This document shows positions 43,862 to 61,997 of a stretch of DNA of 64,000 nucleotides, piece after piece. The position numbers and the translations under genes are program-made. Below the pieces are notes generated by a model, which worked only from the letters and a program-made list of their open reading frames with translations, was not told the origin of the DNA and ran no database searches. Source of the DNA: Verrucomicrobiales bacterium (GTDB lineage Bacteria; Verrucomicrobiota; Verrucomicrobiia; Methylacidiphilales; JAAUTS01); contig JAIRPN010000018.1 in the NCBI GenBank assembly GCA_031256975.1, positions 807 to 64,806 on the forward strand. The letters run 5' to 3'. The stretch's first letter is position 1. Each line of letters begins with the position of its first letter.

Positions 43862-43908
43862 TTTGGTTCAGATTTTGTGTGAAATATTCAAAAATCTGCT
43901 CCTTAAAT

Positions 43909-43941: not shown

Positions 43942-43961
43942 ATTGCAATGTAGATTTGTGT

Positions 43962-45613: not shown

Positions 45614-48535
45614 TTAGGGTTGTGAGGTAATCTTGATGCTATAGGTGATTTGGTTGGGACTGGTTGGGGTCCCGCTGCTGCCGCTGACCTGAACATTGGG
45701 AATCAAGTCGACAATGCAATTTTTGGCAGTGCGGGCCAGCACCCGGCCATTTTGGTCAAGGGCTTGTCCCTGGCTGTAAATGCGATAGCGGTAGGAACGG
45801 AAGGTGATGAGATGAGCCACCCGCCCAAAAGCCTCTTCACGGACGCGATCATTGCCGTCCAGTCGTTGAGTGACGGCGGCGCCGGTACCGCCGGCAAGTG
45901 AGACATTGGCCAGCCCGGAGACATTGTTATAAAGGCTGCCGGTCTTGCCCCAGATGGAGGGGGAGGGATTGTCGATCAACACACTGCTGTTAAGCTGGGA
46001 GGGAGTGTAACCGAGCAGGATGAAATCATTGAAATTGCGGAAGGGTTTGGCGTCGGTCCAAGCACCGGCAACCAGACGTTTGGCAATTTCAGGATTGATC
46101 GGGTTATCTGTCATTTTTAACTTGCTGCCGGTGAGGACAGGCTGGCCGGCGGGAGGCGTGCTGGCATAGGCGACGGGATAAAATTGTAAAAATTGGTTGC
46201 GCAGGTAGGACCAGAATGTTTGCAAGGGATTTAATGAGCTGTAGGTGGTATCCGTGAGGGTGCCGGGGCGCGGGACATTGACGTTGAGCCGGAGACGGTC
46301 GTTATTATTGTCGATGGTGAAAATTTCCAGCAAGGCCGCATCGGCTTTTTTCAGGTAGTTGGTATAATTGCTTCTGACGAAGGAATCAAATTGCCCGATG
46401 ACCAGGGTTTTAGTGCCGCGCGGCCGGCTGTCACCGGTTACCGTATCGAAAGTCGGATCAAAAATATTGCCAAGTTCGACAATATTTTGCATTGGCGCAT
46501 GAGCAATGTGTGTCGGGGCTGAATAGGGCGACTTGACATAACCACCGCCCGCACCGACGAGCGGCCGGTCAAACCAAGTGGTCATGTCTTGATAGGGAGA
46601 ACCGCCGCTGCCGCCGGTGGTATTGTTGGGAACACCGGGGGTGTGGCGTTCTTTGGCCATGGTTGCCCAACTGGAAAGGTAACGTCCCAAGGTTTCGCGG
46701 AGATCTTCGCTATTGCCACTCGAACCATAACCGGGTGAGCATCCTGATTTTCCGGTGGAATAAGAACCGCCCAGATTACAGGGCCAATAGGCATCAAGAA
46801 TCCGTGGCGTGCCGTTCATGGACTGGATAGTGGTGGAGCCATCATCATTAGTGATAATGGTGGGTGCGGCACCCTCGATGTAGAACAGTATAAAGCCCAT
46901 GGCTGTGCCACTGCCACTTTGGTTGGCTGCATTAAAGGAGGTGTTCTGCGAAGAATATACCGTATAGACCCTGGAAAGAGAAAAAGCGCGAAATTCGTTC
47001 GGGCTAAGGGTGATGGGCGTGGAAGAAATGGCGATATCTTCAGAGGATAGTTGTGGCACATAACCGTTAAGTGGCACACCCGAAACGGTGGAATGTTGTT
47101 GTGCAATGAAATGAATATAAAGATTGGGTACTGTGGATGGCGTATCGGCGGAATTCCAAAGCTCAATGATACGAGTCAAGCCAACCTGGGTTTTATAGGG
47201 ATTTGCTCCGCCAACATTGGTGACCAAATATTGTGGTGAGGCAGAGCTGGCGGTGCCGAAGTAGTAAAGAATTTCATTCACACGGGGCGTTGCGGCTATG
47301 CCGTACCAGAGATTGGGATTGCTGTAATTTCCCCAAATGGTGCTGCCCATGGTCTGGATGTTGTTGAAATAAGTTTGCAGGGAAGGTGAGAGCATTGGGT
47401 AGCGTTCGCTGCGGATATAATTGACAATCGAAGCGGCCAAGCGATTGGTTGTGCCCGGCACGCCGCCGCTGGCGGCACCGATAGTGGTTTCTTTGCGATT
47501 GTAAAAGTCAGGCAAACCATTCTGGATAAATTGGCTGATCGACGGTACTGCGGTGGTTGCGGCATCGGCAAGGGTTGCGGGGGTGGTGGCTACCACATTC
47601 ACATTCATCCTGGCTTCGCCGACCTTGGGGCCGTAGGCGATGAGGTTTTGCGGGTCGGGATAGGTACCGGTGCTTTGCACGGTTTCCTCGCGGGTGACGT
47701 CGACGGTGTAGAGGTTTTGGTTGGTGCCGCCACTTAGGGCGGCGACCGTTTGGGCCGGGGAACTGGGCGAAGGCCATATGGTGCTGCTGCGATAAGTAAC
47801 CAGAGTTTTTACATCTTCGGTAGAGAGCCCCTCAATTTTTAGATTGGTGGCATCGAGCGGAGCGTTGGGATCGTTGGGTTGCGCGACGGTCGGCGTGTAG
47901 GTGGTGGAAGTGGTGATGGTGCCGCTGACGTTGCCGACACGGCTGACATCGAGTTTGGAGGATTCGTCATCGACCCAGTAGGCGTAGCGGCCGTAAGTGC
48001 CGCTGGTATTGGGGGCGTTGCTGCCGAGGTAAATCCAGCCGGCCGGGTAGGAGCCGCCACCGGGGTCGATTTGTTTATTGGCATTCATGTCCACACTGGC
48101 GGTGGAGGAGAGGGCCATGATTTCGTTGGGACCGAGGTTGGCGGGCAGGGAGTTGGAACTGGAGGAAACCAGCCAGTAGGTGTTGGGAGCGGTGCCGCTG
48201 GTGTTGGTGAAGTCGCCGTTGAGCACGTCCTGGGAAATTGCGACGTAGAAGGGGCGGAAGTCGTTGTTGTTGGAATATCCCCAGGTGACGAAACCCTTGG
48301 CGGCGTTGGTGCCGGTGGGTACGGCCTGCAGGATTTTGGAAATGGCGGATTGCTGTGCGGCCTCGGCCATGGCGTCTGCCTTCAGTTTGTTGAGGTAGGC
48401 GCGCGAGGTCAGGCGGTCGGTGCGCATGGACTGCAGGAACACCACCACCATGACGGTGAGGATGGTGAGGACCAACAGGGTGCTGATGAGGGCGAAGGCG
48501 CGCGCGTGAGGATGACGATGGATGGCAGGCATCAT
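45614..48535 (-). CDS. giant GspK/PilX-like minor pseudopilin-position protein (973 aa)
   Basis: The N-terminus HARAFALISTLLVLTILTVMVVVFLQS is a pseudopilin-like hydrophobic helix without Glu+5, as in GspK/PilX. The gene sits in the K position after the H-I-J-like genes. The remainder is T/S/N/G/P-rich. Confidence 0.6.
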   Translation of the reverse strand: MMPAIHRHPHARAFALISTLLVLTILTVMVVVFLQSMRTDRLTSRAYLNKLKADAMAEAAQQSAISKILQAVPTGTNAAKGFVTWGYSNNNDFRPFYVAISQDVLNGDFTNTSGTAPNTYWLVSSSSNSLPANLGPNEIMALSSTASVDMNANKQIDPGGGSYPAGWIYLGSNAPNTSGTYGRYAYWVDDESSKLDVSRVGNVSGTITTSTTYTPTVAQPNDPNAPLDATNLKIEGLSTEDVKTLVTYRSSTIWPSPSSPAQTVAALSGGTNQNLYTVDVTREETVQSTGTYPDPQNLIAYGPKVGEARMNVNVVATTPATLADAATTAVPSISQFIQNGLPDFYNRKETTIGAASGGVPGTTNRLAASIVNYIRSERYPMLSPSLQTYFNNIQTMGSTIWGNYSNPNLWYGIAATPRVNEILYYFGTASSASPQYLVTNVGGANPYKTQVGLTRIIELWNSADTPSTVPNLYIHFIAQQHSTVSGVPLNGYVPQLSSEDIAISSTPITLSPNEFRAFSLSRVYTVYSSQNTSFNAANQSGSGTAMGFILFYIEGAAPTIITNDDGSTTIQSMNGTPRILDAYWPCNLGGSYSTGKSGCSPGYGSSGNSEDLRETLGRYLSSWATMAKERHTPGVPNNTTGGSGGSPYQDMTTWFDRPLVGAGGGYVKSPYSAPTHIAHAPMQNIVELGNIFDPTFDTVTGDSRPRGTKTLVIGQFDSFVRSNYTNYLKKADAALLEIFTIDNNNDRLRLNVNVPRPGTLTDTTYSSLNPLQTFWSYLRNQFLQFYPVAYASTPPAGQPVLTGSKLKMTDNPINPEIAKRLVAGAWTDAKPFRNFNDFILLGYTPSQLNSSVLIDNPSPSIWGKTGSLYNNVSGLANVSLAGGTGAAVTQRLDGNDRVREEAFGRVAHLITFRSYRYRIYSQGQALDQNGRVLARTAKNCIVDLIPNVQVSGSSGTPTSPNQITYSIKITSQP

Positions 48536-49314
48536 GGGTTGAGGTTGACGCGCAGGCGGAACAGCTGCGCGTTTTGTGATTTTACGGTTTCCATCGTATT
48601 GGAATTGGTCCAGTCCTGGGCGCTGGTGAATTTCTGCGCGGTGTCGTAGTTGTAGGCGCGCAGGCTGATGTCAAAGAAGGCGGGCTGGGTGTGGTAATCG
48701 CCGTCGTCGAGCTGGATCGGGTCAGCGTCGCCCGTGTAGCGCTGGATGAAGAAGTCGATGACGTTGCGGGCGATGATTTCGTCGCCGCCGGTGCTGCGGG
48801 TGGCGTTGGCGGATGGGAACAGCAGGGCGTTGGGGTCGCTCATCAGCGCGAGCAGTCCCCCGGTGGCGTTGCTCCAGGTGGTGTTGCTGCTCTTGAAGTA
48901 GCGGTGCAGGTTGTAGGCGCCGCGGTTGATGCCGTTGCTGGGACTGGTGTAGGCGATGTAGTAGCCCACGGCGCAAAGGTCGCTGTTGCTGAGCGTGGGA
49001 TCCTGGGCGTCGCTGCCGGAAGTGGTGATGAAGAAGATTTTATCACCATGTTCCGGCGGGGCGAAGCTGCCGTCTCCGTTATTGTCGATTGCCGGGTTTT
49101 TGTAGAAGGGAATGCGCGAGGTGATCCTGGCGTTTTGCAGGTCGTGGCTGAGGTAATACAGCGCAGCCCGCGCCTCGCTGTAGGCGTTGACTTTGCTTTC
49201 GCTGCTTTTCCAGGTGTGGGTGGCTTGCGAAAAAAAGGAGAACAACAGCAGGATCAGGATGGCCAGGACGCTGGTGGCAACCAGCAGTTCGATCAGGGTG
49301 AAACCGGTTTGCAT
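48532..49314 (-). CDS. prepilin-type N-terminal cleavage/methylation domain protein (GspJ-position pseudopilin)
   Basis: ATG 49314 gives MQTGFTLIELLVATSVLAILILLLF (G/FTLIE). Confidence 0.75.
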   Translation of the reverse strand: MQTGFTLIELLVATSVLAILILLLFSFFSQATHTWKSSESKVNAYSEARAALYYLSHDLQNARITSRIPFYKNPAIDNNGDGSFAPPEHGDKIFFITTSGSDAQDPTLSNSDLCAVGYYIAYTSPSNGINRGAYNLHRYFKSSNTTWSNATGGLLALMSDPNALLFPSANATRSTGGDEIIARNVIDFFIQRYTGDADPIQLDDGDYHTQPAFFDISLRAYNYDTAQKFTSAQDWTNSNTMETVKSQNAQLFRLRVNLNP

Positions 49315-49333
49315 GGCGGAAGACTGTGTTTCT

Positions 49334-49412
49334 GGTGATGGGAATATGGGGTTCCCGTGAGGGGAACAACATGTTTTGGTGACGGGAATGCGGGGTTCCC
49401 GTGAGGGGAACA
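49334..49412 (-). repeat. tandem 44-nt-period repeat, each unit carrying a hairpin, within the pseudopilin operon
   Basis: ggtgatgggaatatggggttcccgtgaggggaaca (49334..49368) is repeated as ggtgacgggaatgcggggttcccgtgaggggaaca (49378..49412). Each unit contains GTTCCC-N5-GGGAAC. Confidence 0.8.
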
Positions 49413-49474
49413 CGTGCTTCCAAGGACGGGATTCCAGCCTGGTGAAATGATTGTACGAAAGAAAATGACCGGAT

Positions 49475-50056
49475 TCATAACTCGGGAACGATCAGGGTGA
49501 CGAACACTTGTTTTTTGCGGTCGACAGGTTTGGCGGCGGCGGGCCATTCGACGGTGAGGGTGACGCGGGAGTAGTTGTAGGCGGTGGCGGGGTTGTTGTC
49601 GGGGTTGTAAGCGGCGCTGAGGCGGCTGATATAAAAGGCGGTGGCGACGCTGGTGCCGTTGTTGTAATCGGCGGCGCCGTTGAGGGTGCGCAGGGGGGTG
49701 CCGTTGTTGTCAAAGACGATATACAAGGGGTTCGCGTCATTGGTGTCGGCAAGGTTGAATTGGGTGGAGCGGGAGCTGGTGACCAGGGCGGTGTTGGCTT
49801 GCTCGGAGGTGACCTGCGAGAGGATTTCACGGTTGTTGCGGTTGCCGGTGTCGGCACGGGACTGGATTTCCGCCAGCAGGGACTGGGCGATGAAGGTGGC
49901 GCGGGTGTCGCTCTTGCTGTCGCTGGCGGTATTGAGCGCCAAGGGGAACAGCATCAGGATGGCCACCAGGGCATAGGTCAGGATGGAGAGGGCGAGAACG
50001 ACTTCGATCAGACTGAATCCATGACGGCCGGTGGGTGCGGAACTGCGGGCGGTCAT
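49475..50056 (-). CDS. prepilin-type N-terminal cleavage/methylation domain protein (GspI-position pseudopilin)
   Basis: MTARSSAPTGRHGFSLIEVVLALSILTYALVAIL (G/FSLIE). Confidence 0.75.
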   Translation of the reverse strand: MTARSSAPTGRHGFSLIEVVLALSILTYALVAILMLFPLALNTASDSKSDTRATFIAQSLLAEIQSRADTGNRNNREILSQVTSEQANTALVTSSRSTQFNLADTNDANPLYIVFDNNGTPLRTLNGAADYNNGTSVATAFYISRLSAAYNPDNNPATAYNYSRVTLTVEWPAAAKPVDRKKQVFVTLIVPEL

Positions 50057-50058
50057 AA

Positions 50059-50697
50059 TTACTGTAGCGTGGCGAGGTCCATTTCCGCGCGCCCGGTGAA
50101 GCGCTGGAAGGTGATGCGGTCGAAGTAGGTGGAGTTCTTGGTCATCAGCGTGTCGCGGTTGTTGGCGAACACGCCTTCATAAAGATACAGGCAGAGGTTT
50201 GCGGGATTCGACGGGGTCCTGATGGCGCCGGTGGGGGTATAGACGATGGACGGCAGGGAGGCGCCGGAATTGAGCTGCGGCAGGTTGCCGGAGGGAATCG
50301 AAAGCACGGCGGTGCCGTCCTGGAACAGCGAGGTGCAGTCGCGCTTGAAGGAAATATTCTTGGGCAGGAACATCCACTTGGTCACGGCGACGTATTGCAC
50401 CCCGGCGGGGTCGCTGTCCACGCGGTCGCGGAAGATAATATAGGCGTGATAGGGGAAGTCGGTGCCGAGCTGGCTGAGCGACTGGTCGGCAAAGCCGACG
50501 TAGGCATTGACGCCGTTGGTGAGGGCGGCGATGCGCGCCTGCTCGAAGGCGTTGAGCAAGGTGTTGACCGCGCCCTGGCGGCCGGTGGAGTTCGACATGG
50601 AATTGATGGCGGGCAGGGCGGTGGCCATCAGGATGGCCATGACCGACACGACAGTCAGCGTTTCCAGCAGAGTGAAACCTTGTTTGTTTTTATTCAT
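50059..50697 (-). CDS. prepilin-type N-terminal cleavage/methylation domain protein (GspH/FimT-position pseudopilin)
   Basis: ATG 50697 gives MNKNKQGFTLLETLTVVSVMAILMA (G/FTLLE). Confidence 0.75.
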   Translation of the reverse strand: MNKNKQGFTLLETLTVVSVMAILMATALPAINSMSNSTGRQGAVNTLLNAFEQARIAALTNGVNAYVGFADQSLSQLGTDFPYHAYIIFRDRVDSDPAGVQYVAVTKWMFLPKNISFKRDCTSLFQDGTAVLSIPSGNLPQLNSGASLPSIVYTPTGAIRTPSNPANLCLYLYEGVFANNRDTLMTKNSTYFDRITFQRFTGRAEMDLATLQ

Positions 50698-50885
50698 GGG
50701 CAGCAATGTGACACGCCCGTGTTCCGTTCGTATCAACGTCGTGTAACAAGTCGGTGTCATTTTCGCCGCCAATATGAGAATAGCGGCAATGCTTTCGTGT
50801 GCTTTTCCCTTTCGCGGATTTCGCTTTGCAGAATCGTGACGGAATGGACACGGGGCTGTCGCAATCGGCCGGCAGATTTTCCAGA

Positions 50886-53648
50886 ATGAAGGGAGGTTGT
50901 TGCAAAGGAGCGCTGGGGCTCGTCGTGTTGTCAGGTCTGCTGGCGATGGCGACGTGTTGCCGGGCGCAACAGCAGCCCGCGGCGATGACCGCCCACGACA
51001 CTCTGGAAGCCGGTTTCATGGCGTTCCGGACTGCCGATTACAAGAAGGCGGAGTCGGTGCTCAATGATTTCCTGCGCGATTACGGCAAGAGCGCCGAGGC
51101 CAAGCAGTATTTGTCGAAGGTGCTGGAACTGCTGTCTTTTTCGCAAATCCGGCTGGGCAAATATGACGACGCCTTGGAAACCATTGCCCGTTATCTGCAG
51201 GAATACCCGGAAGGTGACGAGGCGGAGTCGCTGTCCTTCTGGCAGGGCATCTCCCTGCTGCGGGTGGAGAAATTTGACGAATCGAAAAGCGCGCTGGAAG
51301 CCTTCCTGAAGAAATATCCGCGCAGCAGCAAGGCGGACGATGCGCGTTACGCGATCGGCCTCGACCTGTTGAAGAACGGCAAGTATCGCGAGGGAGCGGA
51401 TTATTTCGTGAACCTGGCGCCGCAACTGAAACCGGACATGGCTTATGAGGCATTGGTGCTCGCGTTGTACGGTTACGTGGAAGGCGACGACCGCGACCGC
51501 GCGCTGGAACTGGTCCTGAAGATCGACCCGCTCAGCCCGCAGGCCAACAAATTGGCGGTGTATCATTTGCTGGCGTTGAACCTGGGCAGCCGCCTGTTGC
51601 AGAAGGGCGAGGACCGCAAGTCGCTGCTGGCCTTGCAACGGGTCTGGGGCAAGGACAAGATTTTGTCGCGGCAGCAACAGAAGCTGGCCGAGTTGCAGGC
51701 CAGGCAGCAGCAACAGGCCAATGACAAGAACGCCGATCTTTACCAGCAAAGCCGCCTGGCGGAGGTGATCGGGGAAATCCAGGGCGAGATCAAGCAGCTG
51801 AACAAGATTCCCGATTATGACACCGCGCTGCAATTTCGCATCGCCCAAGCCTATATCCATCTCAATCGCTACCGCGAGTCCTATCTGGTGTTGCGGCAGA
51901 TGGCCAATAAGTTGCCGGACAGCGAGATGCTGATGCAGGCGGAATACACCATGGTCTATTGCCTGGTGTACATGGAGCGCTGGGACGAAGTGGTGAAAGC
52001 GGCGGCGGAATTTGAAAAGCGGTTCCCGAAATCCTCGCAACTGGCGCTGGTGTTGTACCTGCGCGGCGAATCCTGCCGCCAGATGGAGGACTACGCGGGC
52101 GCCTATGAAGTGTTCTCACGCATCGGCAAGGATTTTCCCGACAGCCAGTATGCCGAGCGTTGCGCCTTTCTGGCGGGTTATGTGTTGCTGATGCAGGACA
52201 GGAATCCCGAGGCGACCGCGCAATTCCAGGATTACATCAAGAAATACCCGCAGGGGGTGTTGCTGGAGAAGGCTTATTACTGGCTGGCGATGTCGTACCA
52301 TTATAACAAGGATTACGAGCAGAGCCGCGCGGCGCAGAAAAGTTACCTCGATCATTACCCCAAGGGCCAATATGTGGCGGACAGCAATTTCCGCCGCGCG
52401 CAGGCCCTCTTCAACCAGAAGAATTTTGTCGACGCCTACAAGGAGCTGGAAAACTGCCTGAAGCAGTTTCCGAAATACGAGCGGCTGGACGAGTTGAAAA
52501 CGCAACTGGGCGACTGTTATTTTGCGCTGGGGGAAATCGACCGCGGGCTGGCGGTGTATCAAAGCACCTCGCTGAAGGATCCGGGCCTGTACGATTACGC
52601 GGTGTTCCGCGAGGGACAGGCCTACAAGACCCGCGAGGAGTACGACAAGCTGCTGGCGCTGTTCCAGAAGTTTCTCACCGATAGGCCCAATAGCCCGCGC
52701 CTGACCGAGGCTTTGTCGCAGATCGCGTGGTATTACCGTTCCAAGGGTGATGCCGGCAAGGCGGCGGAGATTTACTGGCAGGCGGTCCGCGACCACGGTG
52801 ATGATCCGGAAGCTGCTGGCGTGGAGGATATGCTGCGCACGCTGGCGAAGTATTACCGCCAGCCGGATGAAAAACAGAAGTTTGTCATCCGCCTGCAGTC
52901 GATGGCGGAGCAGGAGGCGGCCAAGCGCCCAACCCTGACGGCGCGAGTGCACTGGATGCTGGCGCAACTGGCACAGAAGGAAAACCCGGCCTCGGCGGAC
53001 CAGCAGTTGCTGGCGATCAAGCAAAACCTTGATTTGCGCAAGCTGAGTCCCTTGCTGCTGGTTGATGTTGGCGATGCGGCGTTGCGCCTTGGCAGGACGG
53101 ATGACGCGAAGGAATGTTACCGGACGCTGATTTCGTGGTATCCGACCTCGATGTTGAAGGATCGCGGCTACGTGGGCATGGGCTTGGTGGCCAGGGCGGC
53201 GGGTAACAACGACGAGGCCTTGTCGTACTTCGCGTTGTTCGACAAGAATGATTTCCAGTCGATGGAGAAGCCGCGGGTGCTGCGCGCCAAGGCGGATATT
53301 TATCTGGACCAGAACAAGCCGGAGCTGGCCTTGGAACAATTGGAGACTTTGCTGGCCATGCCGATCACCAAGGGCCGCAATGCGGTGGAAGCCTTGTACC
53401 AGATCGGCAGCATCCGCCTGTCGCTGGGCGATGCGAAGAAGGCGATACCTTATTTCCAGCGCATCTATGTGATGTATTCGCGCTGGAGCGATTACACCGC
53501 CAAGGCTTACTGGAGCAGCGGGCAGGCCTTTGAAAAATTGAACATGACCGAGGAAGCGCGCAAGACCTACCAGGAATTCATCGGCCAGGACAATCTGAAA
53601 CAAACGGCGGAATACGCCAGGGCACAGGAGCGCTTGAAGGCTTTATGA
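50886..53648 (+). CDS. secreted giant TPR-repeat protein (920 aa from ATG 50886)
   Basis: The internal ATG gives the signal peptide MKGGCCKGALGLVVLSGLLAMATCCRA. TPR-like repeats run throughout (YPKG.., YAERCAFLAGY.., AYYWLAMSYH..). Confidence 0.8.
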   Translation: MKGGCCKGALGLVVLSGLLAMATCCRAQQQPAAMTAHDTLEAGFMAFRTADYKKAESVLNDFLRDYGKSAEAKQYLSKVLELLSFSQIRLGKYDDALETIARYLQEYPEGDEAESLSFWQGISLLRVEKFDESKSALEAFLKKYPRSSKADDARYAIGLDLLKNGKYREGADYFVNLAPQLKPDMAYEALVLALYGYVEGDDRDRALELVLKIDPLSPQANKLAVYHLLALNLGSRLLQKGEDRKSLLALQRVWGKDKILSRQQQKLAELQARQQQQANDKNADLYQQSRLAEVIGEIQGEIKQLNKIPDYDTALQFRIAQAYIHLNRYRESYLVLRQMANKLPDSEMLMQAEYTMVYCLVYMERWDEVVKAAAEFEKRFPKSSQLALVLYLRGESCRQMEDYAGAYEVFSRIGKDFPDSQYAERCAFLAGYVLLMQDRNPEATAQFQDYIKKYPQGVLLEKAYYWLAMSYHYNKDYEQSRAAQKSYLDHYPKGQYVADSNFRRAQALFNQKNFVDAYKELENCLKQFPKYERLDELKTQLGDCYFALGEIDRGLAVYQSTSLKDPGLYDYAVFREGQAYKTREEYDKLLALFQKFLTDRPNSPRLTEALSQIAWYYRSKGDAGKAAEIYWQAVRDHGDDPEAAGVEDMLRTLAKYYRQPDEKQKFVIRLQSMAEQEAAKRPTLTARVHWMLAQLAQKENPASADQQLLAIKQNLDLRKLSPLLLVDVGDAALRLGRTDDAKECYRTLISWYPTSMLKDRGYVGMGLVARAAGNNDEALSYFALFDKNDFQSMEKPRVLRAKADIYLDQNKPELALEQLETLLAMPITKGRNAVEALYQIGSIRLSLGDAKKAIPYFQRIYVMYSRWSDYTAKAYWSSGQAFEKLNMTEEARKTYQEFIGQDNLKQTAEYARAQERLKAL

Positions 53649-54580
53649 ACGCGCGTTGTCTGGTCATTGGCGGATTGTTGCTGGGTGGCTGCCTGTCATT
53701 GCGGGCGGATGTGATCACGCTCAAGAGCGGACAGAATGTGGAGGGCAAAATTGCCGGGACCGATGGCAAGACGCTGACGGTGGAGTCGGACGTGGCGGGA
53801 CAGCGTGCGCAGGTGAAGTATCCGCTGGCATTGGTCGACAAGCTGGTGTTTGTCGATGATGACGCCACCAAAACCCTGCTTGCCAGCAATGACCCGAAAG
53901 ATCTTCCGGAGCTGGCGAAATTATGGGAGTCGCGGCAGGTCTTTCTCGGCCAGCCGGAAAGCAACGCCGGTGCGGTGGCATTGGCCTACGCAAGGTTGCT
54001 GCTGAAGAGCGGCGGTGACTTGAACCAGGTGCTGGCCCTTAGCGCCGAGGTGGAATCGGGGGACTGGCAGGTTGCGAGAAAACCCGAGGCGACCCGCCTG
54101 CGACTGGCGGTCTTGGTGAAGAGCGGCAAATCCGACCAGGCTTTGGCCGAGGCGGAGAAGATCGGCAGTGCAGCCGGTGCGGACGATGACACCCTGCTGC
54201 AAGCGCAGGTGCAGGCGCGTTTTACCGGTGCGGAAGTGGCCTGGGCCAAATTGCAACAACTGGAACGCGATTGGCCGAAGTGGGCGCTCATGCCCGACAA
54301 GCGGGTCGAGCGTCAGCATTTGCTGGACAAAACCCTGGATGGATTTTTGTATCCGGTGGTGTTCCAGAGCCAGCTCAGGAACCTTTGCGCCGAGGGATTG
54401 TATCGCAGCGCCGAGATCGAGTGCCTGACCGGCAGCCTGGCGAACGCGGCGGTCCACGTGCAGGAAATCATCACTTATTACGCCAACGACGAGTTCAAGG
54501 CCAAGGCGGAAAATTTAATCAAACAATACCAACTCACCCTCCCGGCAAAGGGCGGGGACAACAAGGGGAAGAACTCATGA
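53645..54580 (+). CDS. putative lipoprotein, hypothetical
   Basis: MNARCLVIGGLLLGGCLS has a lipobox LGGC. It overlaps both neighbours by 4 nt. Confidence 0.55.
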   Translation: MNARCLVIGGLLLGGCLSLRADVITLKSGQNVEGKIAGTDGKTLTVESDVAGQRAQVKYPLALVDKLVFVDDDATKTLLASNDPKDLPELAKLWESRQVFLGQPESNAGAVALAYARLLLKSGGDLNQVLALSAEVESGDWQVARKPEATRLRLAVLVKSGKSDQALAEAEKIGSAAGADDDTLLQAQVQARFTGAEVAWAKLQQLERDWPKWALMPDKRVERQHLLDKTLDGFLYPVVFQSQLRNLCAEGLYRSAEIECLTGSLANAAVHVQEIITYYANDEFKAKAENLIKQYQLTLPAKGGDNKGKNS

Positions 54581-55389
54581 ACAAGTGGAAAGTAATCGTA
54601 ATGTGCCTGGCGCTGGCGGCGCTGGGCTGGTCGGGAAACGTCTGGTCGCAGTCAACGCCGCCGCCAACCACCGCGGAAACCGTGGCGGCCAAGGAAAAGG
54701 CGCACAACAAGGACAAGAGCCTGCTGGATATCTACCGTTCCGGCGGACCGGTGATGCACCTGATCGCCTTGTGCTCGGTGGGCATGATCGCCCTGAGCGC
54801 CTATTGCGGGCTAAGCTACCGCAAAAGCAAGCTGATGCCCGAGCATTTGGTCAATTCGCTGAACCAGTTGATGAGCCAGCGTGATGTGCCCGGCGCGTTC
54901 CAATTGTGCCAGCAGCATCGCGGGGTGCTGACCAATGCGCTGATGTCGGCGCTGGTGAAGGCCAATTTTGAGCGTGACATGTACAACAAGACCGCGATGG
55001 AGAACGCCGTTGCCGACGAGTGCTTCCGCGAGGAGACCAAGATGATGGTGGTGATCAACTACCTGAACACCCTGGCGGTGATGGCGCCGATGATCGGGCT
55101 GCTCGGCACGGTGATCGGCATGATTTCCAGTTTCTCTGCGCTGACGGCGGGCAGGACCGAGGCGATGGAACTGGCGGGCGGCATTGGCGAGGCGCTAACC
55201 GCGACCGCCGGCGGCTTGCTGCTGGCGATTCCGTCGATGTTCCTGTACTTCTATTTCCGCGGCATGGCGCAGGCGCAGATGGCGGATATGCACAAGACCT
55301 TGTCCAACATGCTCGACATGTTCACCGGTGAAATCTCGGTGGGCAACGAGGGCGCCAACAACCGCGTTGGCGAACGGGTGAACGGTTGA
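54577..55389 (+). CDS. exbB: MotA/TolQ/ExbB proton-channel family protein
   Basis: ATG 54577 (ATGA overlap). APMIGLLGTVIGMISSF and GGIGEALTATAGGLLLAIPSMFLYFYF are present. Confidence 0.85.
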   Translation: MNKWKVIVMCLALAALGWSGNVWSQSTPPPTTAETVAAKEKAHNKDKSLLDIYRSGGPVMHLIALCSVGMIALSAYCGLSYRKSKLMPEHLVNSLNQLMSQRDVPGAFQLCQQHRGVLTNALMSALVKANFERDMYNKTAMENAVADECFREETKMMVVINYLNTLAVMAPMIGLLGTVIGMISSFSALTAGRTEAMELAGGIGEALTATAGGLLLAIPSMFLYFYFRGMAQAQMADMHKTLSNMLDMFTGEISVGNEGANNRVGERVNG

Positions 55390-55408
55390 CCGTTAGCGGA
55401 TTGCAATC

Positions 55409-55831
55409 ATGAGTGAAACACGCCGCAGGTTGAAACGGACCCACGTGGACGAGGTCGGGCTGCAAATCGCGCCGATGATCGACGTGGTCATGCTGTTGCT
55501 GTTTTTCTTCATGCTGACCGGCAAGTTGATGCAGAACAACAAGGTGCGTTCCATCGCCCTGCCGCATGCCACCTCGGCGGTGATCCCGGGTGATGTGAGC
55601 GGACGCGACATCATCAATATCGACGAGCATGGCAAGATCAGCGCGGGCGACCAGCCGATGACCACTAAGGAATTGCAGGTTTACCTGAAAAAACGGCTGC
55701 AGGAATATCCGCCCCTGCGTATTTATGTGCGCGCTGACGCCAAGACCCCGGCCAGTGAAATCAAGCAGATCATGCGCATTGCCGCCGGAGCGGGCGCGGT
55801 GGAAGTGATCTTCGGCAGCTACCAGAGGTAA
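55409..55831 (+). CDS. exbD: ExbD/TolR family biopolymer transport protein
   Basis: LQIAPMIDVVMLLLFFFMLT plus a C-terminal periplasmic domain. Confidence 0.85.
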   Translation: MSETRRRLKRTHVDEVGLQIAPMIDVVMLLLFFFMLTGKLMQNNKVRSIALPHATSAVIPGDVSGRDIINIDEHGKISAGDQPMTTKELQVYLKKRLQEYPPLRIYVRADAKTPASEIKQIMRIAAGAGAVEVIFGSYQR

Positions 55832-55833
55832 AC

Positions 55834-56295
55834 ATGGCCACGCCCCGCAAGATAGAACACCCGGCAATTGAGTTGCAGATCGCGCCGATGATCGACGTCT
55901 GCTTTCTGCTGCTGTTCTTTTACATCATCACTTCCAAGCCGATCAAGCCCGAGGCCGACCTGAGCATGACCCTGCCCGGCACGGTGCAGCAGGAAGAGGC
56001 GTTGAACCTGCCGGACGAGCAGCGGATTGAGATCCAGGGCGACAGCAAGATCGTGATCAACGACATGCCGGTCGGCGAGCCGGGGGATTCGGCGTTGCCG
56101 CAATTGGTCACGATCCTGAAGCGTTTCAAGGAAACCTGCGACGCCAACAAGACCGAGGCGCTGATCACGCTGGCGGCGGAGGATTCCGTGCCGCACCAGC
56201 GCATTGCCGACGTGTTGAACGCCTGCGCCAGGGCCGAGATTCACGGCGTGAGTTTCGCCGTGACCGGTGATGATGAGGAAGGGGTTGCACCATGA
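55834..56295 (+). CDS. exbD: ExbD/TolR family biopolymer transport protein (second copy)
   Basis: LQIAPMIDVCFLLLFFYIIT plus a C-terminal periplasmic domain. Confidence 0.85.
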   Translation: MATPRKIEHPAIELQIAPMIDVCFLLLFFYIITSKPIKPEADLSMTLPGTVQQEEALNLPDEQRIEIQGDSKIVINDMPVGEPGDSALPQLVTILKRFKETCDANKTEALITLAAEDSVPHQRIADVLNACARAEIHGVSFAVTGDDEEGVAP

Positions 56296-57326
56296 ACAGC
56301 GGGTTGATGGTGGCGCCCGACAAGCCGACGCGCGGCAGGAAGCGCAAGCTGGTCGTTAGTGTGTTGCTGGTCAGCCTGGCGGTTCATGGCTTGGCCGGAT
56401 TGGGCGCGGCGGTGTGGGTGGTGGTGAAATATTTCCAGCCGCCGGAAGCGGTGTTTAGCGCCAAGAAAATCGTCACGATTCCGCCGAAGATCATCGACCC
56501 GAAGATGGCCTCCGGCGAACTGGAGGCGTCGTCACCCAGGCCGGCGCTAAACGAGAAAATCGCCAGCATCCGGCCCACGGATTTCGCACTGCCGGATCTG
56601 CCGACCATCCCGACCGACCAGGTCATGCAGTTCGACCCGACCGCGTCGATGATGTCGGCGAATGGTTTTGGCGGCCAGGGCAATGGTCGCGGCGGCGGTG
56701 GCGGCAACGGCGCCGAGAAAATCGACTTGGCGCTCAACGCGATCAGTTTTTTCGGACTGGAGACCAAGGGCAAGAGCGTGGTGATCCTGTTCGATATTTC
56801 ACAGAGCGTGCTGACCAAGGCGCAGAAATCCGGCGTGCCGATCGAGAAAATCCGCGACGAGACTTCCAAGCTGATCAACGCGATCAGCATCAACACCTCG
56901 TTCGGTTTGATCCAGTTCTCGCGCAATTACCAGCCCTTCAAGAAGGAACTGGTGGCGCCGACCGATGAGAACAAGCAGGCGGCCCAGCAGTGGTTGCAGA
57001 CCGAATTTCGCACCACCGGTTCGCTCGGCGGCAGCGGGGTGGTTTACACCCGGCCGAACGGCATCGAATTGGTGATGGAGCAGGCGTTCAAGATGCAGCC
57101 GGACGTGATCTATGTGGTGTCGGACTGCGACTTTCAACGCACCTTGCAAAGTGGCGAGGGGGAAAATGTTTCGCTGGAGAACCTGGACAAGGAAATCAAG
57201 CAGTGGCAGTCCGCACGCGAGGAGCCGGCGAAGATTTATTTCATTACCTTCCAGATGAAAAGCGCGCAGGCGACGATGATCCGCCAGATCGCGTCGCACA
57301 ATCACGGGCGGGTGAAAGAGCTGTAG
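56292..57326 (+). CDS. membrane-anchored VWA-domain protein occupying the TonB/TolA position of the ExbBD operon
   Basis: The order is a basic N-terminus, a TM helix (LVVSVLLVSLAVHGLAGLGAAVWVVV), a P-rich spacer, a Gly-rich linker (GGQGNGRGGGGGNG), then a VWA-like domain with MIDAS VVILFDISQS. It is a paralogue of 25210..26175 (shared FFGL..GK.V.I..D.S.S). Confidence 0.7.
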   Translation: MNSGLMVAPDKPTRGRKRKLVVSVLLVSLAVHGLAGLGAAVWVVVKYFQPPEAVFSAKKIVTIPPKIIDPKMASGELEASSPRPALNEKIASIRPTDFALPDLPTIPTDQVMQFDPTASMMSANGFGGQGNGRGGGGGNGAEKIDLALNAISFFGLETKGKSVVILFDISQSVLTKAQKSGVPIEKIRDETSKLINAISINTSFGLIQFSRNYQPFKKELVAPTDENKQAAQQWLQTEFRTTGSLGGSGVVYTRPNGIELVMEQAFKMQPDVIYVVSDCDFQRTLQSGEGENVSLENLDKEIKQWQSAREEPAKIYFITFQMKSAQATMIRQIASHNHGRVKEL

Positions 57327-57330
57327 TTTT

Positions 57331-58290
57331 ATGAATATCAAAAGAAGAATCCTGGTCTTAACTTGGTTGTCACTGGCCTTGCCGGCCTTCGCGCTGGTGC
57401 CGCCGAAAATTTCCGCGCCGGAAACATCGGTGCCGCAGGATGCGGCGGCGGTGGAAAGCGGGTCATCGTTCGTGCTGGGTTCGTGGAACATGGAATGGTT
57501 TCCCGGTCACAGCCCGAAAGTGGAGAAGAGCCAGAAACAGATCGACGCGGTGGAGAAGGTGTTGGACGAAGAAAAACCTGCCATTTTCATGTGCTGTGAG
57601 ATACGCGGCCTTGGGGCCTTGAAGTTGTTGCAACTGGATTATCCCTACATGGCCTGTACCAATATTCCGCGCGTTGCCGAAGCCGCGCAGCAAAGTGCGG
57701 GAACTTTGCCGATGCAGGGGATTGGTTTGCTCAGCAAGGTGCCGTGGAAGGAAGTCTGGACGCTGGATTTCAGCGAATTGCCCGAGGCGCCGGAACGTCC
57801 GCCGCGCGGGGTGTTGGGCGCTTTGTTCGTATTGCCCAACGGACGGCAGCTGACGGTTTACGGGGTGCACTTGAAAAGCAACCGCGGTGACGCGGAAACT
57901 GACCGGATGGAGCGGGAAAGCGCGATTGATTACATTGAATGGGACTGGCAACGCCGCCAGCTCGACCCGGCCAAGGACAACATTGTGATCATGGGCGATT
58001 TCAATACTTCACCGAACGACCCGAAATTCGCCGAGGAAAAAACCATCCGCCGTTTGCTGTCAGCGGGTTTTGTCAGCGCGGCGCAGGGATTGCCGGCGGA
58101 GCAGCGGACCACCCTGCCGGGCAAGGGCAAATATCCCGACAATGATTTTGACCATATCCTGATTTCCTCGTCCTTGCGGGCGCTAATGGCGGGCGATCCG
58201 CCGTGGCTCAAGATTGTCAAGGTTCCCGAGGCGGCCAGCGATCACAATGCGCTGTTCCTGGATGTCACGAATTGGGTTGCGCCGAAGTAA
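57331..58290 (+). CDS. secreted endonuclease/exonuclease/phosphatase (EEP) family protein
   Basis: Signal peptide is present. SWNMEWF, CCEIR, VYGVHLKS, IMGDFN, DHILIS and SDHNALFLDV are present. Confidence 0.8.
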   Translation: MNIKRRILVLTWLSLALPAFALVPPKISAPETSVPQDAAAVESGSSFVLGSWNMEWFPGHSPKVEKSQKQIDAVEKVLDEEKPAIFMCCEIRGLGALKLLQLDYPYMACTNIPRVAEAAQQSAGTLPMQGIGLLSKVPWKEVWTLDFSELPEAPERPPRGVLGALFVLPNGRQLTVYGVHLKSNRGDAETDRMERESAIDYIEWDWQRRQLDPAKDNIVIMGDFNTSPNDPKFAEEKTIRRLLSAGFVSAAQGLPAEQRTTLPGKGKYPDNDFDHILISSSLRALMAGDPPWLKIVKVPEAASDHNALFLDVTNWVAPK

Positions 58291-59290
58291 CCGGCGCGGC
58301 GTGTTCCGGATCGAGCAGCTGGTTCAACAAATTCGCCAGTCGCAATCCGGCCAGCACGATTTGTTGCCGGGCAAGTTCCTGTGAGCTGTGAACATATTCC
58401 GCCGACAGCGAAGTATTCTTGTGGGTCGGATCGAACGGCAGGGTGCCGTAGATTTTTTCACGGGCCAGCTTGTTGGTTTCCATGGCCCAAGCGGCGAAAT
58501 CAGCCTGCTGGGCGACCGGCGAAGCGGGCAGGTAATCGTTGATGCCAAACAGGTACGGTTTCACGTCATCGAGCAAGTGCGGGGAATCGTAATCCTTGGG
58601 CGGATCGATGACCACGTTGCTGTCCTTGAATCGCGCCTTATAGGCGGCGTCCCAGAAATAATGCAACACATAATGCGTCGGGTAATTGCGCGGCTTCTGG
58701 CCCGGGGCCGGTTCCTTGATCGAATTGGTGATGATGACCAGGTTTCCTCCCTGGTCAGTTGACTTTTCTTTGGATGAGGGGTCGGGGAAATAGTAACTGG
58801 CGCAGTGCAGCGGTTGATGGATGTCGCCGACCAAGTGTTCGATCATTGCCAAGGCCATGGCGGGGCTTTTGATCAAGGGATCCGTGCCGCCCCGCAGGAC
58901 TGCCACGGCGCGGTTCAGGGCCTGCACCACGTTGCCTTCCTTCGGATTGCCCAAGTCCTTGGCAGTGAACTCGGCGGGCGGATCGTCATTGGCGACGCCC
59001 ATGTCGATGTAGTGCCAGTTGGTGAACTGACCATGAAAGGGAACGTCTTCCCTCTTGGTGCGGATGTCATCCATCCAGCAGGCCAGCGTGATGAAATCGT
59101 AGCTGCGGCCCGGAAAATCAATTTGTTGTGCCAGCGCATCGGCCTTTTGCCGGGCCAATGGCGTGAGGTGTTCGGCGGCGACATTGGTGACCAGCATGTG
59201 GCCGATCGCGTCCCAAGCTTTCGCGGTTAGCGGCGGAAAAATGAATTGAACGAGCGAGGCGGTGACAAACAAACGGGCAAAATGATTCAT
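58265..59290 (-). CDS. secreted S1/P1-family nuclease
   Basis: ATG 59290 gives a signal peptide ending ..LTAKAWDAIGH (the mature protein would start with W). WMDDIR, WHYID, LVGDIHQPLH and GGN are present. Its 3' end overlaps the EEP gene by 26 nt. Confidence 0.85.
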   Translation of the reverse strand: MNHFARLFVTASLVQFIFPPLTAKAWDAIGHMLVTNVAAEHLTPLARQKADALAQQIDFPGRSYDFITLACWMDDIRTKREDVPFHGQFTNWHYIDMGVANDDPPAEFTAKDLGNPKEGNVVQALNRAVAVLRGGTDPLIKSPAMALAMIEHLVGDIHQPLHCASYYFPDPSSKEKSTDQGGNLVIITNSIKEPAPGQKPRNYPTHYVLHYFWDAAYKARFKDSNVVIDPPKDYDSPHLLDDVKPYLFGINDYLPASPVAQQADFAAWAMETNKLAREKIYGTLPFDPTHKNTSLSAEYVHSSQELARQQIVLAGLRLANLLNQLLDPEHAAPVTSAQPNS

Positions 59291-59409: not shown

Positions 59410-60783
59410 TCAGCGCAATGGCGTGACGGTGATGTAATCGACGTTGATGCCGTTACCCTTTTCGCCAGCGAGTTTGACGGTGTTGGTCTTGCCGGGTTTC
59501 AGCGGGACGGTCAGGAAGGTGCAGCCGGTGTAGTTGTTCCAGCCGCCGGTGGCAATCGCATTGATGAAGGACCAATCCTCGTCGTTGACAATCAGGCGCA
59601 GCTTGGTGGTTTTTTCCGCGGCGAAGTAAACGCTAATGGTGGCCATGCCGCCGTCCTTGCCGTCGACTTTGTTGAATTGCAGGGAGGCATCGGCGAGGTG
59701 CAGGTTCTGCACGCTCTTGCCACCGGATGCGCCGGGGGCTTCGTTGACCGTGGCACTGCCGCTGAGGGTGGCGGTTTCGGCCTCGTACTTGACGGTCTCG
59801 GCGGTTGCCTTGGGCGCGGGTGTCGCGGTTAGCGTCGCCGGACGGGTTTGCGCGATTGGCTTGATAGTGCCGTCGTCGTTGAATTCGACTTTGTCGACAC
59901 AGACCGAGCGCAGATTGCCGCGACCGCTAATGTCGGCACAGTGATAGAACTGGTACCACTGGCCTTTGAATTCAACCAGGGAGCCGTGGCTGGTGTCGCT
60001 GCTTTGCGGGTCGAGATAGACGCCCTTGTATTCCCAGGGGCCGAGCGGGTTTTTGCTGATGGCGTAACGCATGCGGTTGGCGCCTTTTTTCTTTTCGTTT
60101 TGGTGGTTGTCGGCGTAGGTGAGATAATAGAGACCATTGCGTTTGAACACCCAGGTGGCTTCGTGGAAATCCTCCAGTCCGGTCATCAGTTGTACCTCGC
60201 CGTCGAGTTCGGTCATGTTCGGCTTGAGCTTGGCACCGACGCATTTACTGCCGCCACCGATGTAGATGTAGGCTTGGCCGTCGTCGTCGACGAAGATGCA
60301 GGGATCGATCAGCGCGAAACCGCCGAGTCCCTGAATGTAGCCCTGCGACTTGAAACCACTGGCGGGATTCTTGCTGGTGGCGACGCCGATTTTCCACGAG
60401 TCGTTCCATTTGGTTTCGCTGGGATGCGGGAAATAAAAATAGTAGGTGCCGTTCTTGTAGGCGCAGTCGGGCGCCCACATGAAGCCGCCTTCCTTGCGGC
60501 CCCATTCCACGTCGCTGGAGCGCAGGATTTCGCCGTGATCGGTCCAATGCACCAGGTCGTCGGTGGAGAACACATGATAGCGGTCCATCAAATCGCAACC
60601 GCGAGGCGGGTCCATGTCGTGCGAGGCATAGACATACAGGCGGCCGTCCGCCCACACGTGTGCCGAGGGGTCGGCGGTGTAGATGGCGGTGATGATCGGG
60701 TTGGTGAAGGTGGCGTTGTCGGCTTGCACACGGCAACCGAGGGCGCCAATGGCGATAATGGCAAGGCAGCAAAGGTGTTTCAT
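59410..60783 (-). CDS. glycoside hydrolase family 43 enzyme with C-terminal CBM6/35-like module
   Basis: Signal peptide is present. YTADPSAHVW, MWAPDCAYKNGTYYFYF and EATWVFKRNGLYYL are present. The C-terminus YEAETATLSG..GGWNNY..VDYITV is CBM6-like. Confidence 0.85.
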   Translation of the reverse strand: MKHLCCLAIIAIGALGCRVQADNATFTNPIITAIYTADPSAHVWADGRLYVYASHDMDPPRGCDLMDRYHVFSTDDLVHWTDHGEILRSSDVEWGRKEGGFMWAPDCAYKNGTYYFYFPHPSETKWNDSWKIGVATSKNPASGFKSQGYIQGLGGFALIDPCIFVDDDGQAYIYIGGGSKCVGAKLKPNMTELDGEVQLMTGLEDFHEATWVFKRNGLYYLTYADNHQNEKKKGANRMRYAISKNPLGPWEYKGVYLDPQSSDTSHGSLVEFKGQWYQFYHCADISGRGNLRSVCVDKVEFNDDGTIKPIAQTRPATLTATPAPKATAETVKYEAETATLSGSATVNEAPGASGGKSVQNLHLADASLQFNKVDGKDGGMATISVYFAAEKTTKLRLIVNDEDWSFINAIATGGWNNYTGCTFLTVPLKPGKTNTVKLAGEKGNGINVDYITVTPLR

Positions 60784-60836
60784 AGCGGTGTTAGATTAAA
60801 CGTATTATCTTCATGTTAAATAAGCAACGATTTTAT

Positions 60837-61997
60837 TTATGATAATTGTGGTGAACCGGGATTTCGGGGGCTTGTGGGAGGAAAATCTAACGCATCGGAG
60901 GGGATGCGGGTCAGGGCGGCGGTTTGCCGCAGCAGCACGGGAAATAGCCTCGCCCCAAGGGCCAACCATGGTTGCGCCAGCGGCGAGGTCATGGCATGGG
61001 AAAGCAGGGCGGCGGTTTTGATCCGGTGCGACAGGGAACGGTTGAACAAGGATTGAAATTGTGCCGGCGATTTTCCGGCCAGGTGACAACCGGCCGCCAG
61101 CCGTGCGCTGTGCAGTGCGATGGAAATGCCGTCGCCAGAAAAGGAGGGAATCACGGCGGCCTGGTCGCCCAGACGCCAGAGTTGTTCTGCACGGCGGTTC
61201 ACGTAACCATAGGGAATCGAGGAAGCCGCCAAGGGCCGCGTCCAAAGCGGTTCGGCCTGCTGCAAACGGCGGGATAAATGCGGGGACGAACTGGTCAAGT
61301 GCCGCAACAGTTTGTCCCAGGACGATCCGATTCGCTGGTAGGTGTCCTGCCGGATCAGCAAACAAAGATTGGCGATGCCGGTTTCCACCGGTTCGAGACC
61401 GCAATAACCGCCGGGAAACAGGATTAACTCAACCTGTCGTGTCAATTCCGCCTGCTGCCGCGGGGACAAGCGCCAGTGCATTTTGAAGGCAATCAGGTCA
61501 TTCTGCAATCCGCCCCGGCGTTTCCAGCCGCGCAGGTCATGCTTGCCAGTGGCGAGAAACACGCTATCCGCACGGAGCGTTTCCCCGTTGGCGAGTTGCG
61601 CCTGCCAGAGCTTTTCAGGCTGTGCGAGATTTTGCACCCTTTGCCCGCGCAGGATTTTGACGCCGTTTTGTTGTGCGCGGGTCAACAGGGCCTCGTCCAA
61701 CACACGCCGGGTCAGTGACAGGGCGCTAAACGGCAGGCGGTTTTCCGCGACGGTGCTTTTCCGGATCACGCGCACTTGGCCGATGGCCACGGCCCCCAAG
61801 TGCAGGGGATCAAGGCCGAGTTCGCGCAGGCAGCCGATCGCTTCCGTGCTCAGGAATTCACCACAGACCTTGTCGTGGGCGGCCGGTTCTTTTTCCACCA
61901 GCAACACTTCACGTCCGGCGCGTGCGAGGTGGATTGCCAGTGCTGCACCGGCAGGCCCGCCGCCAATCACCAGAACTTCATGCTGCCTTGCACTCAT
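60837..61997 (-). CDS. FAD-dependent oxidoreductase/monooxygenase (geranylgeranyl-reductase-like fold; SrsC position)
   Basis: VLVIGGGPAGAALAIHLARAG..VLLVEKE and CGEFLS are present. It overlaps the methyltransferase gene by 4 nt. Confidence 0.8.
   Translation of the reverse strand: MSARQHEVLVIGGGPAGAALAIHLARAGREVLLVEKEPAAHDKVCGEFLSTEAIGCLRELGLDPLHLGAVAIGQVRVIRKSTVAENRLPFSALSLTRRVLDEALLTRAQQNGVKILRGQRVQNLAQPEKLWQAQLANGETLRADSVFLATGKHDLRGWKRRGGLQNDLIAFKMHWRLSPRQQAELTRQVELILFPGGYCGLEPVETGIANLCLLIRQDTYQRIGSSWDKLLRHLTSSSPHLSRRLQQAEPLWTRPLAASSIPYGYVNRRAEQLWRLGDQAAVIPSFSGDGISIALHSARLAAGCHLAGKSPAQFQSLFNRSLSHRIKTAALLSHAMTSPLAQPWLALGARLFPVLLRQTAALTRIPSDALDFPPTSPRNPGSPQLS

Follow-up and report, generated by a model that had tools for sequence, protein, structure and literature searches.

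Here we describe a cluster of seven closely spaced genes within a 64,000-nt stretch of DNA from a Verrucomicrobiales bacterium (contig JAIRPN010000018.1 of assembly GCA_031256975.1, positions 807 to 64,806 of the forward strand; hereafter the window), in which a protein carrying a VWA domain takes the place that a TonB or TolA protein would hold beside an ExbB-ExbD-ExbD motor. The seven genes lie on the plus strand between 50886 and 58290, joined by 4-nt overlaps or parted by gaps of 2, 4 and 19 nt in the list of open reading frames (ORFs), and an eighth gene converges on them from the minus strand. The layout and spacing of all eight ORFs agree with a preliminary description of this DNA, which had proposed an undescribed envelope system ending in secreted nucleases; its gene assignments, overlaps and gaps were borne out by the ORFs and by Pfam matches, including the 26-nt convergent overlap at the 3' end. 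The identical locus, from the same organism, recurs in our set of related loci as L087. The features referred to throughout are as follows.

50886-53648, plus strand: TPR protein, 920 aa from the ATG, with an alternative GTG start at 50799; matches many TPR Pfam models
53645-54580, plus strand: 311-aa protein, secreted; 4-nt overlap with the TPR gene
54577-55389, plus strand: ExbB/TolQ-like proton-channel subunit, 270 aa; ATGA overlap; PF01618 (MotA_ExbB), 6.5e-26
55409-55831, plus strand: ExbD/TolR paralogue 1 (ExbD1), 140 aa; 19-nt gap; PF02472, 1.3e-18
55834-56295, plus strand: ExbD/TolR paralogue 2 (ExbD2), 153 aa; 2-nt gap; PF02472, 3.5e-16
56292-57326, plus strand: VWA protein (putative vWA-type force transducer), 344 aa; 4-nt overlap; Pfam VWA, 4e-7, above the gathering score
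56373-56387, plus strand: S28-x3-H32 motif in the transmembrane helix of the VWA protein (SLAVH, then G)
56442-56456, plus strand: P51-x-A53-x-F55, candidate motor (stator) box after the transmembrane helix
56736-57323, plus strand: VWA head, residues 149-344, with an incomplete metal ion-dependent adhesion site (MIDAS)
57331-58290, plus strand: EEP-family nuclease/phosphatase with a signal peptide; 4-nt gap; PF03372 (Exo_endo_phos), 5.7e-14
58265-59290, minus strand: S1/P1 nuclease with a signal peptide; convergent, 26-nt 3' overlap; PF02265, 8.4e-42 to 9.6e-42
25210-26175, plus strand: orphan paralogue of the putative transducer, 321 aa; Pfam VWA, VWA_2 and VWA_3, ~1e-9 to 1e-10

The VWA protein begins with a basic cytoplasmic N-terminus, crosses the membrane by one transmembrane (TM) helix, runs on through a periplasmic segment rich first in Pro and then in Gly, and ends in a VWA head. 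An alignment-based AlphaFold2 (AF2) model shows a long TM helix at residues 14-48, a low-confidence segment at residues 49-148 (predicted local distance difference test score, pLDDT, mostly <60) and an alpha/beta domain at residues 150-344 (pLDDT >93). When compared with the PDB by Foldseek, the top 50 matches were all VWA domains, including those of inter-alpha-inhibitor heavy chains, calcium-channel alpha2-delta, BatA/BatB and anthrax-toxin receptors. A TonB or TolA C-terminal domain was found neither by Pfam (no TonB_C), nor by NCBIfam, nor among these top 50 structural matches. Pfam, AF2 and Foldseek hence agree that the C-terminal domain encoded at 56292-57326 models as VWA and not as TonB/TolA, as the preliminary description had supposed of the protein in the TonB/TolA slot of this operon.

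The N-terminal half of the same protein carries features of a motor-driven transducer. Specifically, the TM helix reads S28-L-A-V-H32-G, with H32 retained by 81/84 family members and S28 by 62/84, and the same pattern is present in E. coli TonB as S16-x3-H20-G. Just after the helix, the box P51-x-A53-x-F55 is still more constant (A53 in 83/84 and F55 in 84/84). Indeed, the post-TM residues 49-110 form the best-conserved segment of the whole protein (0.67, vs 0.62 for the VWA head), with eleven positions conserved at 93% or above, and the periplasmic segment bears the linear motifs S92-x-R94 and F98-A-L-P-D-L-P104. In this it is unlike the spacers of TonB and TolA, which are low-complexity.

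Upstream, the motor subunits keep their essential residues: T179 and T211 of ExbB are invariant in 75/75 homologues, as are the TM aspartates Asp25 of ExbD1 (79/79) and Asp21 of ExbD2 (80/80). The two ExbD paralogues share 32% identity over 90 aa, and ExbB, which has an N-terminal extension resembling a signal peptide, is equidistant from the solved ExbB and TolQ structures. The best NCBIfam matches of the motor proteins are TolQ/TolR, with ExbB/ExbD close by, all of them far under the equivalog cut-offs. The two genes that open the operon both encode exported proteins of TPR type. A signal peptide is common to the homologues of the TPR protein, in which a YbgF/CpoB-type TPR model from NCBIfam matches seven stretches (a summed repeat score, not an equivalog call). 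The 311-aa protein, for which there was no Pfam match, is modeled with a beta domain of five strands at its N-terminus (residues 22-68) and, beyond this, a helical solenoid of TPR-like form (residues 73-295; AF2 pLDDT 81), and its Foldseek search of the PDB returned weak TPR-like matches, none below 1e-3. It had been taken for a lipoprotein; homologues keep an ordinary signal peptide and do not keep the lipobox Cys16 of the window copy, and it is therefore better called a periplasmic protein.

This set of genes is conserved well beyond the window. Among 5.8 billion proteins there were 41 relatives, and those that bear a name all come from Verrucomicrobiota. When each GTDB species was represented by a single genome, 177 species had a relative, and the best 80 of these are Verrucomicrobiota-type metagenome-assembled genomes (MAGs) of Chthoniobacterales, Terrimicrobiaceae, Verrucomicrobiales, Akkermansiaceae and Methylacidiphilales. 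Searched with a profile, 1.84 billion cluster representatives yielded 185 clusters (50% identity) at E <= 1e-30. Across 83 non-redundant Verrucomicrobiota loci, the conserved order is TPR, ~310-aa protein, ExbB, ExbD, ExbD, VWA. Among loci whose flanks reach far enough, same-strand genes upstream of the VWA gene encode ExbD2 in 79/80, ExbD1 in 77/78, ExbB in 74/76 and the TPR protein in 60/62; the 311-aa protein was detected in 65/75, and the others have a gap of ~1 kb in that slot. The VWA gene thus sits beside exbBD in essentially every related genome examined, so that the lack of synteny which would have counted against the preliminary description was not seen, and the module is single-copy, phylum-wide and often found among housekeeping genes. 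MAGs labelled Blastochloridaceae or Blastochloris, within Alphaproteobacteria (L012/L001 and L016), also carry a Verrucomicrobial-type operon at 43-46% identity; these labels are probably a propagated taxonomic mislabel.

The same architecture has been defined, under the name of vWA force transducers, in a 2025 Mol Biol Evol paper that worked from genomes and reported no phenotype (PMC12204202). The family was met there while examining species without discernible TolA or TonB, with two transducer sequences of Tichowtungia aerotolerans as the seed, given in the supplement (PMC12204202). In its members, the TM helix is described as bearing an SHLS motif together with a conserved His, and the disordered linker as holding a motor box; domain II spans ~100 residues, and the C-terminal fold is vWA. 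The motor (stator) box is a beta strand predicted within the disordered stretch that follows the helix (PMC12204202). The window protein shows these traits in a TM helix with His, a disordered, Pro-rich domain II of ~100 residues and a vWA head, and it is homologous to the seed: BLASTP against Tichowtungia transducer 2 gave 26% identity over 221 aa (residues 27-235) with E = 4e-19. Furthermore, P51-x-A53-x-F55 aligns with residues ~55-60 of the Tichowtungia transducers, which is the stator box of that study (PMC12204202). The locus is a member of this published computational family, and calling it undescribed was therefore incorrect. Nor does the statement hold that no proton-motive-force motor had been coupled to a VWA module, for the same paper points, via Islam et al. 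2023, to the gliding machinery of Myxococcus and its VWA adhesin (PMC12204202). That paper makes no mention of the ~310-aa gene, of how well the linker is conserved, or of the head swapping and PA14 heads described below. The ~310-aa protein in particular counts as the sixth conserved component of the module.

Gene content and synteny, the fold, the conserved motifs and the homology with the published family together lead us to read the locus as a Verrucomicrobial vWA force transducer system, in which an ExbB/ExbD motor would drive a TonB-like tether with a VWA head, and to which we give a probability of roughly three in four. The arrangement that we envisage is as follows; how many copies of each subunit the motor holds, how the parts dock, what the TPR proteins do and which way the force acts are inferred. 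ExbB, presumably a pentamer, and the two ExbD paralogues, presumably a heterodimer, would form a proton-driven 5:2 motor in the inner membrane. The 344-aa protein would dock on this motor through its single TM helix and S28-x3-H32-G, as TonB and TolA do, with P51-x-A53-x-F55, just outside the membrane, as a likely second motor contact. Extended peptides are typical ligands of TPR proteins; the conserved linear motifs of the linker may thus be where the two co-encoded TPR-type proteins dock, and the ~100-residue periplasmic segment would hold the 920-aa and 311-aa proteins as scaffolds in this manner. The VWA head, with its Thr-less MIDAS, would then be offered to a partner that lies at the outer membrane or close to it, and the flow of protons would exert a pull on what the head has bound, or reshape it.

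Several observations weigh against this reading and should be set beside it. Of the published SHLS motif, the family keeps the S-x3-H half alone, as the positions of the L and of the second S are unconserved (A/F and V/T/I, respectively), and the monomer AF2 model has no beta strand at P51-x-A53-x-F55. No conserved gene for an outer-membrane partner was found beside the module when flanking ORFs were clustered over 82 loci. The head itself raises a further doubt. The MIDAS had been described as intact, and its DxSxS triad and the later aspartate are indeed kept (D168 84/84, S170 84/84, S172 83/84, D278 84/84 family members). The Thr position, however, assigned to residue 258 by alignment to GGT-bearing relatives and by the helix N-cap in the model, is Ile in the window protein and L/V/I/F in 84/84 members, and the MIDAS is incomplete for this reason; Thr occurs as GGT at the same position in the window paralogue and in the relatives P0039 and P0041. 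Metal-dependent ligand binding by the head is accordingly uncertain on the residues present. Finally, at two loci the transducer gene is not preceded by a motor. In L021 (7628-9618) a VWA transducer directly follows a 311-aa-like gene, and in L093 (5-3971) a PA14-type transducer directly follows TPR and 311-aa-like genes, with no ExbB/ExbD between in either case.

These two loci would also be expected if the VWA protein were uncoupled from the motor and instead part of a Bat-like, membrane-anchored VWA/TPR complex, the true transducer being encoded elsewhere, and the Foldseek matches to Bacteroides BatA (4jdu) and BatB (3ibs) point in the same direction. Against this, ExbD2 and the VWA gene are adjacent in 79/80 loci, with overlapping start and stop codons at their junction in the window, the TM helix carries the conserved TonB-type S-x3-H-G, no annotated locus contains MoxR or DUF58 genes, and the module encodes no other TonB-like protein. 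We regard an uncoupled complex as quite improbable.

The clustering of flanking ORFs turned up one exception to the rule that nothing beyond the six genes is conserved. In 22/82 loci, all from one clade, a gene for a Pro-rich lipoprotein lies directly after the VWA gene (e.g., L083, 10022-10867) and is followed by tyrA and aroA; by record titles, this clade is mostly Verrucomicrobiales and Akkermansiaceae. The protein has a LATSC lipobox, PGTPG repeats and a small C-terminal domain, belongs to no Pfam family, and may be an outer-membrane-anchored partner.

The preliminary description had also offered, as a speculation, that the motor, the VWA head and the two secreted nucleases work as one machine that uses the energy of the motor to take hold of extracellular nucleic acid, degrade it or take it up. 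The gene order in the window invites such an idea, with the EEP gene beginning 4 nt after the VWA gene, the S1/P1 gene convergent on it and signal peptides on both products. Across ~85 loci, however, EEP and S1/P1 homologues are present at two and absent from all others: L087, which is the same organism, and L005, a 98%-identical relative in which the S1/P1 gene is cut to a 111-aa fragment (7565-7900) while the EEP and GH43 genes are kept. Elsewhere the VWA gene is followed by other genes, namely an amino-acid permease in a 56%-identical relative, and ThuA, a PHP-domain gene, or the Pro-rich lipoprotein and tyrA/aroA in other loci. A nuclease coupling seen in 2 of ~85 loci, essentially one lineage and with S1/P1 decayed in one of them, was rejected, and the nucleic-acid machine is largely refuted and in our judgment extremely improbable. 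EEP and S1/P1 are lineage-specific passengers outside the conserved module, though given the 4-nt gap EEP may be co-transcribed with the VWA gene in the window organism. The pairing of a motor with a nuclease also recalls Zorya-like anti-phage defence, which was rejected after PADLOC gave no match at E <= 1e-3 for nine proteins.

A similar conclusion applies to the pseudopilins. Their genes, recognised by N_methyl matches, do diverge from the 5' end of the operon in the window, as had been stated; the suggested link to the operon did not hold up, as tblastn with four pseudopilins found nothing adjacent to the module in other loci, and a pseudopilus coupling was rejected on these grounds. Since neither set of neighbours is conserved elsewhere, the nuclease and pseudopilus links are best seen as local accidents of gene order. 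The four-gene pseudopilin operon itself (45614-50772, minus strand) includes a 973-aa member without a Pfam family and is adjoined by three tandem PEP-CTERM proteins (42110-44792, minus strand). On the other side of the locus, the genes at 59410-63788 (minus strand), by the annotation of L087, encode GH43-CBM35, then a FAD-dependent oxidoreductase, a methyltransferase, a type III polyketide synthase and a UbiA prenyltransferase, a grouping that resembles a small gene cluster for the biosynthesis of lipids or phenolics. A promoter and terminator scan of the locus gave nothing usable.

Beyond the conserved gene order, comparison of related loci points to a constant N-terminal module, comprising the TM His, the A-x-F box and the linker motifs, onto which different heads are placed. 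Two collinear operons of assembly FLOH01, L100 (transducer at 7995-9053) and L103 (7914-8927), illustrate this well: identity between them is 89% in the N-modules and 30% in the heads, one head being a canonical-MIDAS VWA and the other Thr-less. At the DNA level, identity runs at 78.5% through the operon and N-module, disappears over the ~800 nt of the head and resumes at 90%. Such a pattern indicates that heads are swapped as cassettes on a constant N-module. A complete MIDAS is also found in P0039, encoded in the same operon slot. Furthermore, in P0159, P0176, P0178 and P0182 (loci L088-L099) the N-module is joined to a PA14/GLEYA-type head, with an additional N-terminal SAM and Ser/Thr kinase domain in P0182; these PA14-headed relatives are mostly orphans beside unrelated genes, for example a sulfatase or BipA. 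The head types observed are therefore three: Thr-less VWA, canonical-MIDAS VWA and PA14. A search of a large protein database with the N-module profile gave five matches.

Within the window, the paralogue at 25210-26175 offers a second instance of the TM-linker-VWA architecture, as had been reported earlier. It shares 24% identity (E = 2e-12) and the FFGL..GK..D.S.S block with the operon VWA protein, and has a TM helix reading S-I-L-G-H (S-x3-H); the residues NASF come after the helix, the FFG block is present, and the MIDAS is complete (DVSGS...GGT...TDGE). It had no match to the N-module hidden Markov model at E < 1e-3, and no motor genes lie near it in the window. Its neighbours are a GH3 gene, a weak ParE-like ORF (24834-25193) and a convergent gene for an FHA/DUF4388 protein (26215-27087). 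Orphan tonB genes share one motor, and by analogy this paralogue may be a second transducer that uses the same motor.

What the force transducer system does for the cell can be approached from its distribution and from its heads. A core outer-membrane function, either Tol-like maintenance or energised uptake, is favoured because the module is single-copy, phylum-wide and set among housekeeping genes, and because the published family was drawn from species in which TolA and TonB were not discernible (PMC12204202). Head swapping and the PA14 heads, in turn, favour a variable and possibly glycan ligand.

One form of the maintenance role would be an analogue of Tol-Pal, with the VWA transducer standing for TolA and the giant TPR protein for CpoB, and with the tethering or organisation of the outer membrane during growth and division as its task. 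The best NCBIfam matches of the motor to TolQ/TolR and the repeated YbgF/CpoB-type matches of the TPR protein would both follow from such a role, as would the phylum-wide, single-copy presence of the module among housekeeping genes and its description in species without discernible TolA/TonB (PMC12204202). Nevertheless, no tolB or pal gene was found in or beside any Pfam-annotated locus, the TolQ/TolR scores fall far under the equivalog cut-offs, and swapped heads are easier to reconcile with a ligand that varies than with one set partner like Pal. We consider a Tol-Pal analogue doubtful.

Energised uptake could instead take the form of polymer import, in which the module would power the passage of glycans or glycoproteins across the outer membrane, and might be orthologous to the mucin utilisation locus MUL1 of Akkermansia muciniphila (Amuc_0543-0550; mul1A = Amuc_0544). 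We take Amuc_0544 to be a TPR protein and Amuc_0546-0548 to be ExbB/ExbD genes. Family members occur in a MAG of Akkermansia sp. as well as in Akkermansiaceae MAGs (L038, L045, L049, L065, L076), and a carbohydrate-binding PA14 head on the same N-module suits a glycan role. The mul1A mutant does not use mucin and colonises ~100-fold more poorly (PMC12570417), MUL1 has been likened to the Sus system (PMC13174399), TonB-dependent transport has been ascribed to MUL loci (PMC13096917), and Mul1A associates with nine carbohydrate-active enzymes (CAZymes; bioRxiv 10.1101/2024.03.27.586211), as a TPR scaffold might. On the other hand, MUL1 synteny is reported to be absent from aquatic Akkermansiaceae (PMC13174399), whereas the module is found in environmental Akkermansiaceae MAGs, and neither a TonB-dependent transporter nor a CAZyme is a conserved neighbour of the module. 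Polymer import is possible, and we put it forward tentatively. A broader proposal would make the module the general outer-membrane energiser of Verrucomicrobiota, a constant motor-scaffold chassis made up of ExbB, two ExbD paralogues, two TPR-type proteins and the N-module of the transducer, to which interchangeable adhesin-type heads would be fused or swapped in as cassettes, and of which MUL1 would be the orthologue that powers the 'selfish' import of large glycans and glycoproteins without SusC-type TonB-dependent transporters; taken as a whole, we think this unlikely.

To our knowledge, TonB and TolA were for a long time the sole known routes by which proton energy of the inner membrane reaches the outer membrane in Gram-negative bacteria. 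The vWA-headed transducers would add a third class, with an adhesin-type head, that has so far been predicted from genomes. Because it is a clean and typical example from a phylum in which the module is near-universal, the window locus is a reasonable experimental entry point. Models of the system should leave out the nucleases and pseudopilins and include the ~310-aa protein and the conserved linker. If the module does turn out to correspond to the Akkermansia mucin utilisation locus, the family would already have a phenotype in gut colonisation and mucin foraging.

Comparison with characterised systems helps to place this family. It is closest to the vWA force transducers already described, sharing with them a single TM helix with His, a Pro-rich linker with a box after that helix and a vWA C-terminus (PMC12204202). 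The Tichowtungia transducers are nonetheless ~475 aa long, occur as a tandem pair and are without DxSxS (D-A-N/D-K), whereas the Verrucomicrobial proteins are ~345 aa and single, with DxSxS and the Asp kept and the MIDAS Thr absent.

As in the Ton system, an ExbB/ExbD motor with the essential Asp and Thr accompanies a protein with a basic N-terminus, an S-x3-H-G TM helix and a Pro-rich segment; unlike that system, there is no TonB C-terminal domain and no conserved TonB-dependent transporter neighbour, and there are two ExbD paralogues and two obligatory periplasmic neighbours of TPR type. Resemblance to Tol-Pal lies in a motor that is equally TolQ/TolR-like, a co-encoded periplasmic TPR protein with CpoB-type repeats and a housekeeping-like distribution. 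The locus differs from Tol-Pal in lacking TolA domain III, TolB and Pal, none of which was found among the window genes or the Pfam-annotated related loci, and in a TPR protein of ~920 aa as against ~260 aa for CpoB.

Bat operons contain MoxR and DUF58 genes together with TM-anchored VWA and TPR proteins, and are not known to carry ExbBD. The co-encoding of TM-anchored VWA proteins with TPR proteins is the feature held in common with our locus, along with the structural similarity of the head to BatA (4jdu) and BatB (3ibs) at Foldseek E values of ~3e-6 to 6e-6; MoxR and DUF58 are present neither in this region of the window nor in the annotated related loci. In the Agl-Glt gliding machinery of Myxococcus, the VWA protein is a separate outer-membrane lipoprotein and TonB-like Glt proteins relay the force. 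The window protein differs in that its VWA domain is fused directly to the putative motor-binding tether. The likeness to Agl-Glt/CglB nevertheless extends to a TolQR-type motor, driven by the proton-motive force and tied to a VWA adhesin, with TPR proteins in the complex (PMC12204202; PMC11761067). Lastly, MUL1 (Amuc_0543-0550), where the TPR protein Mul1A and Ton-like components are needed for mucin import, is a candidate for being the same module.

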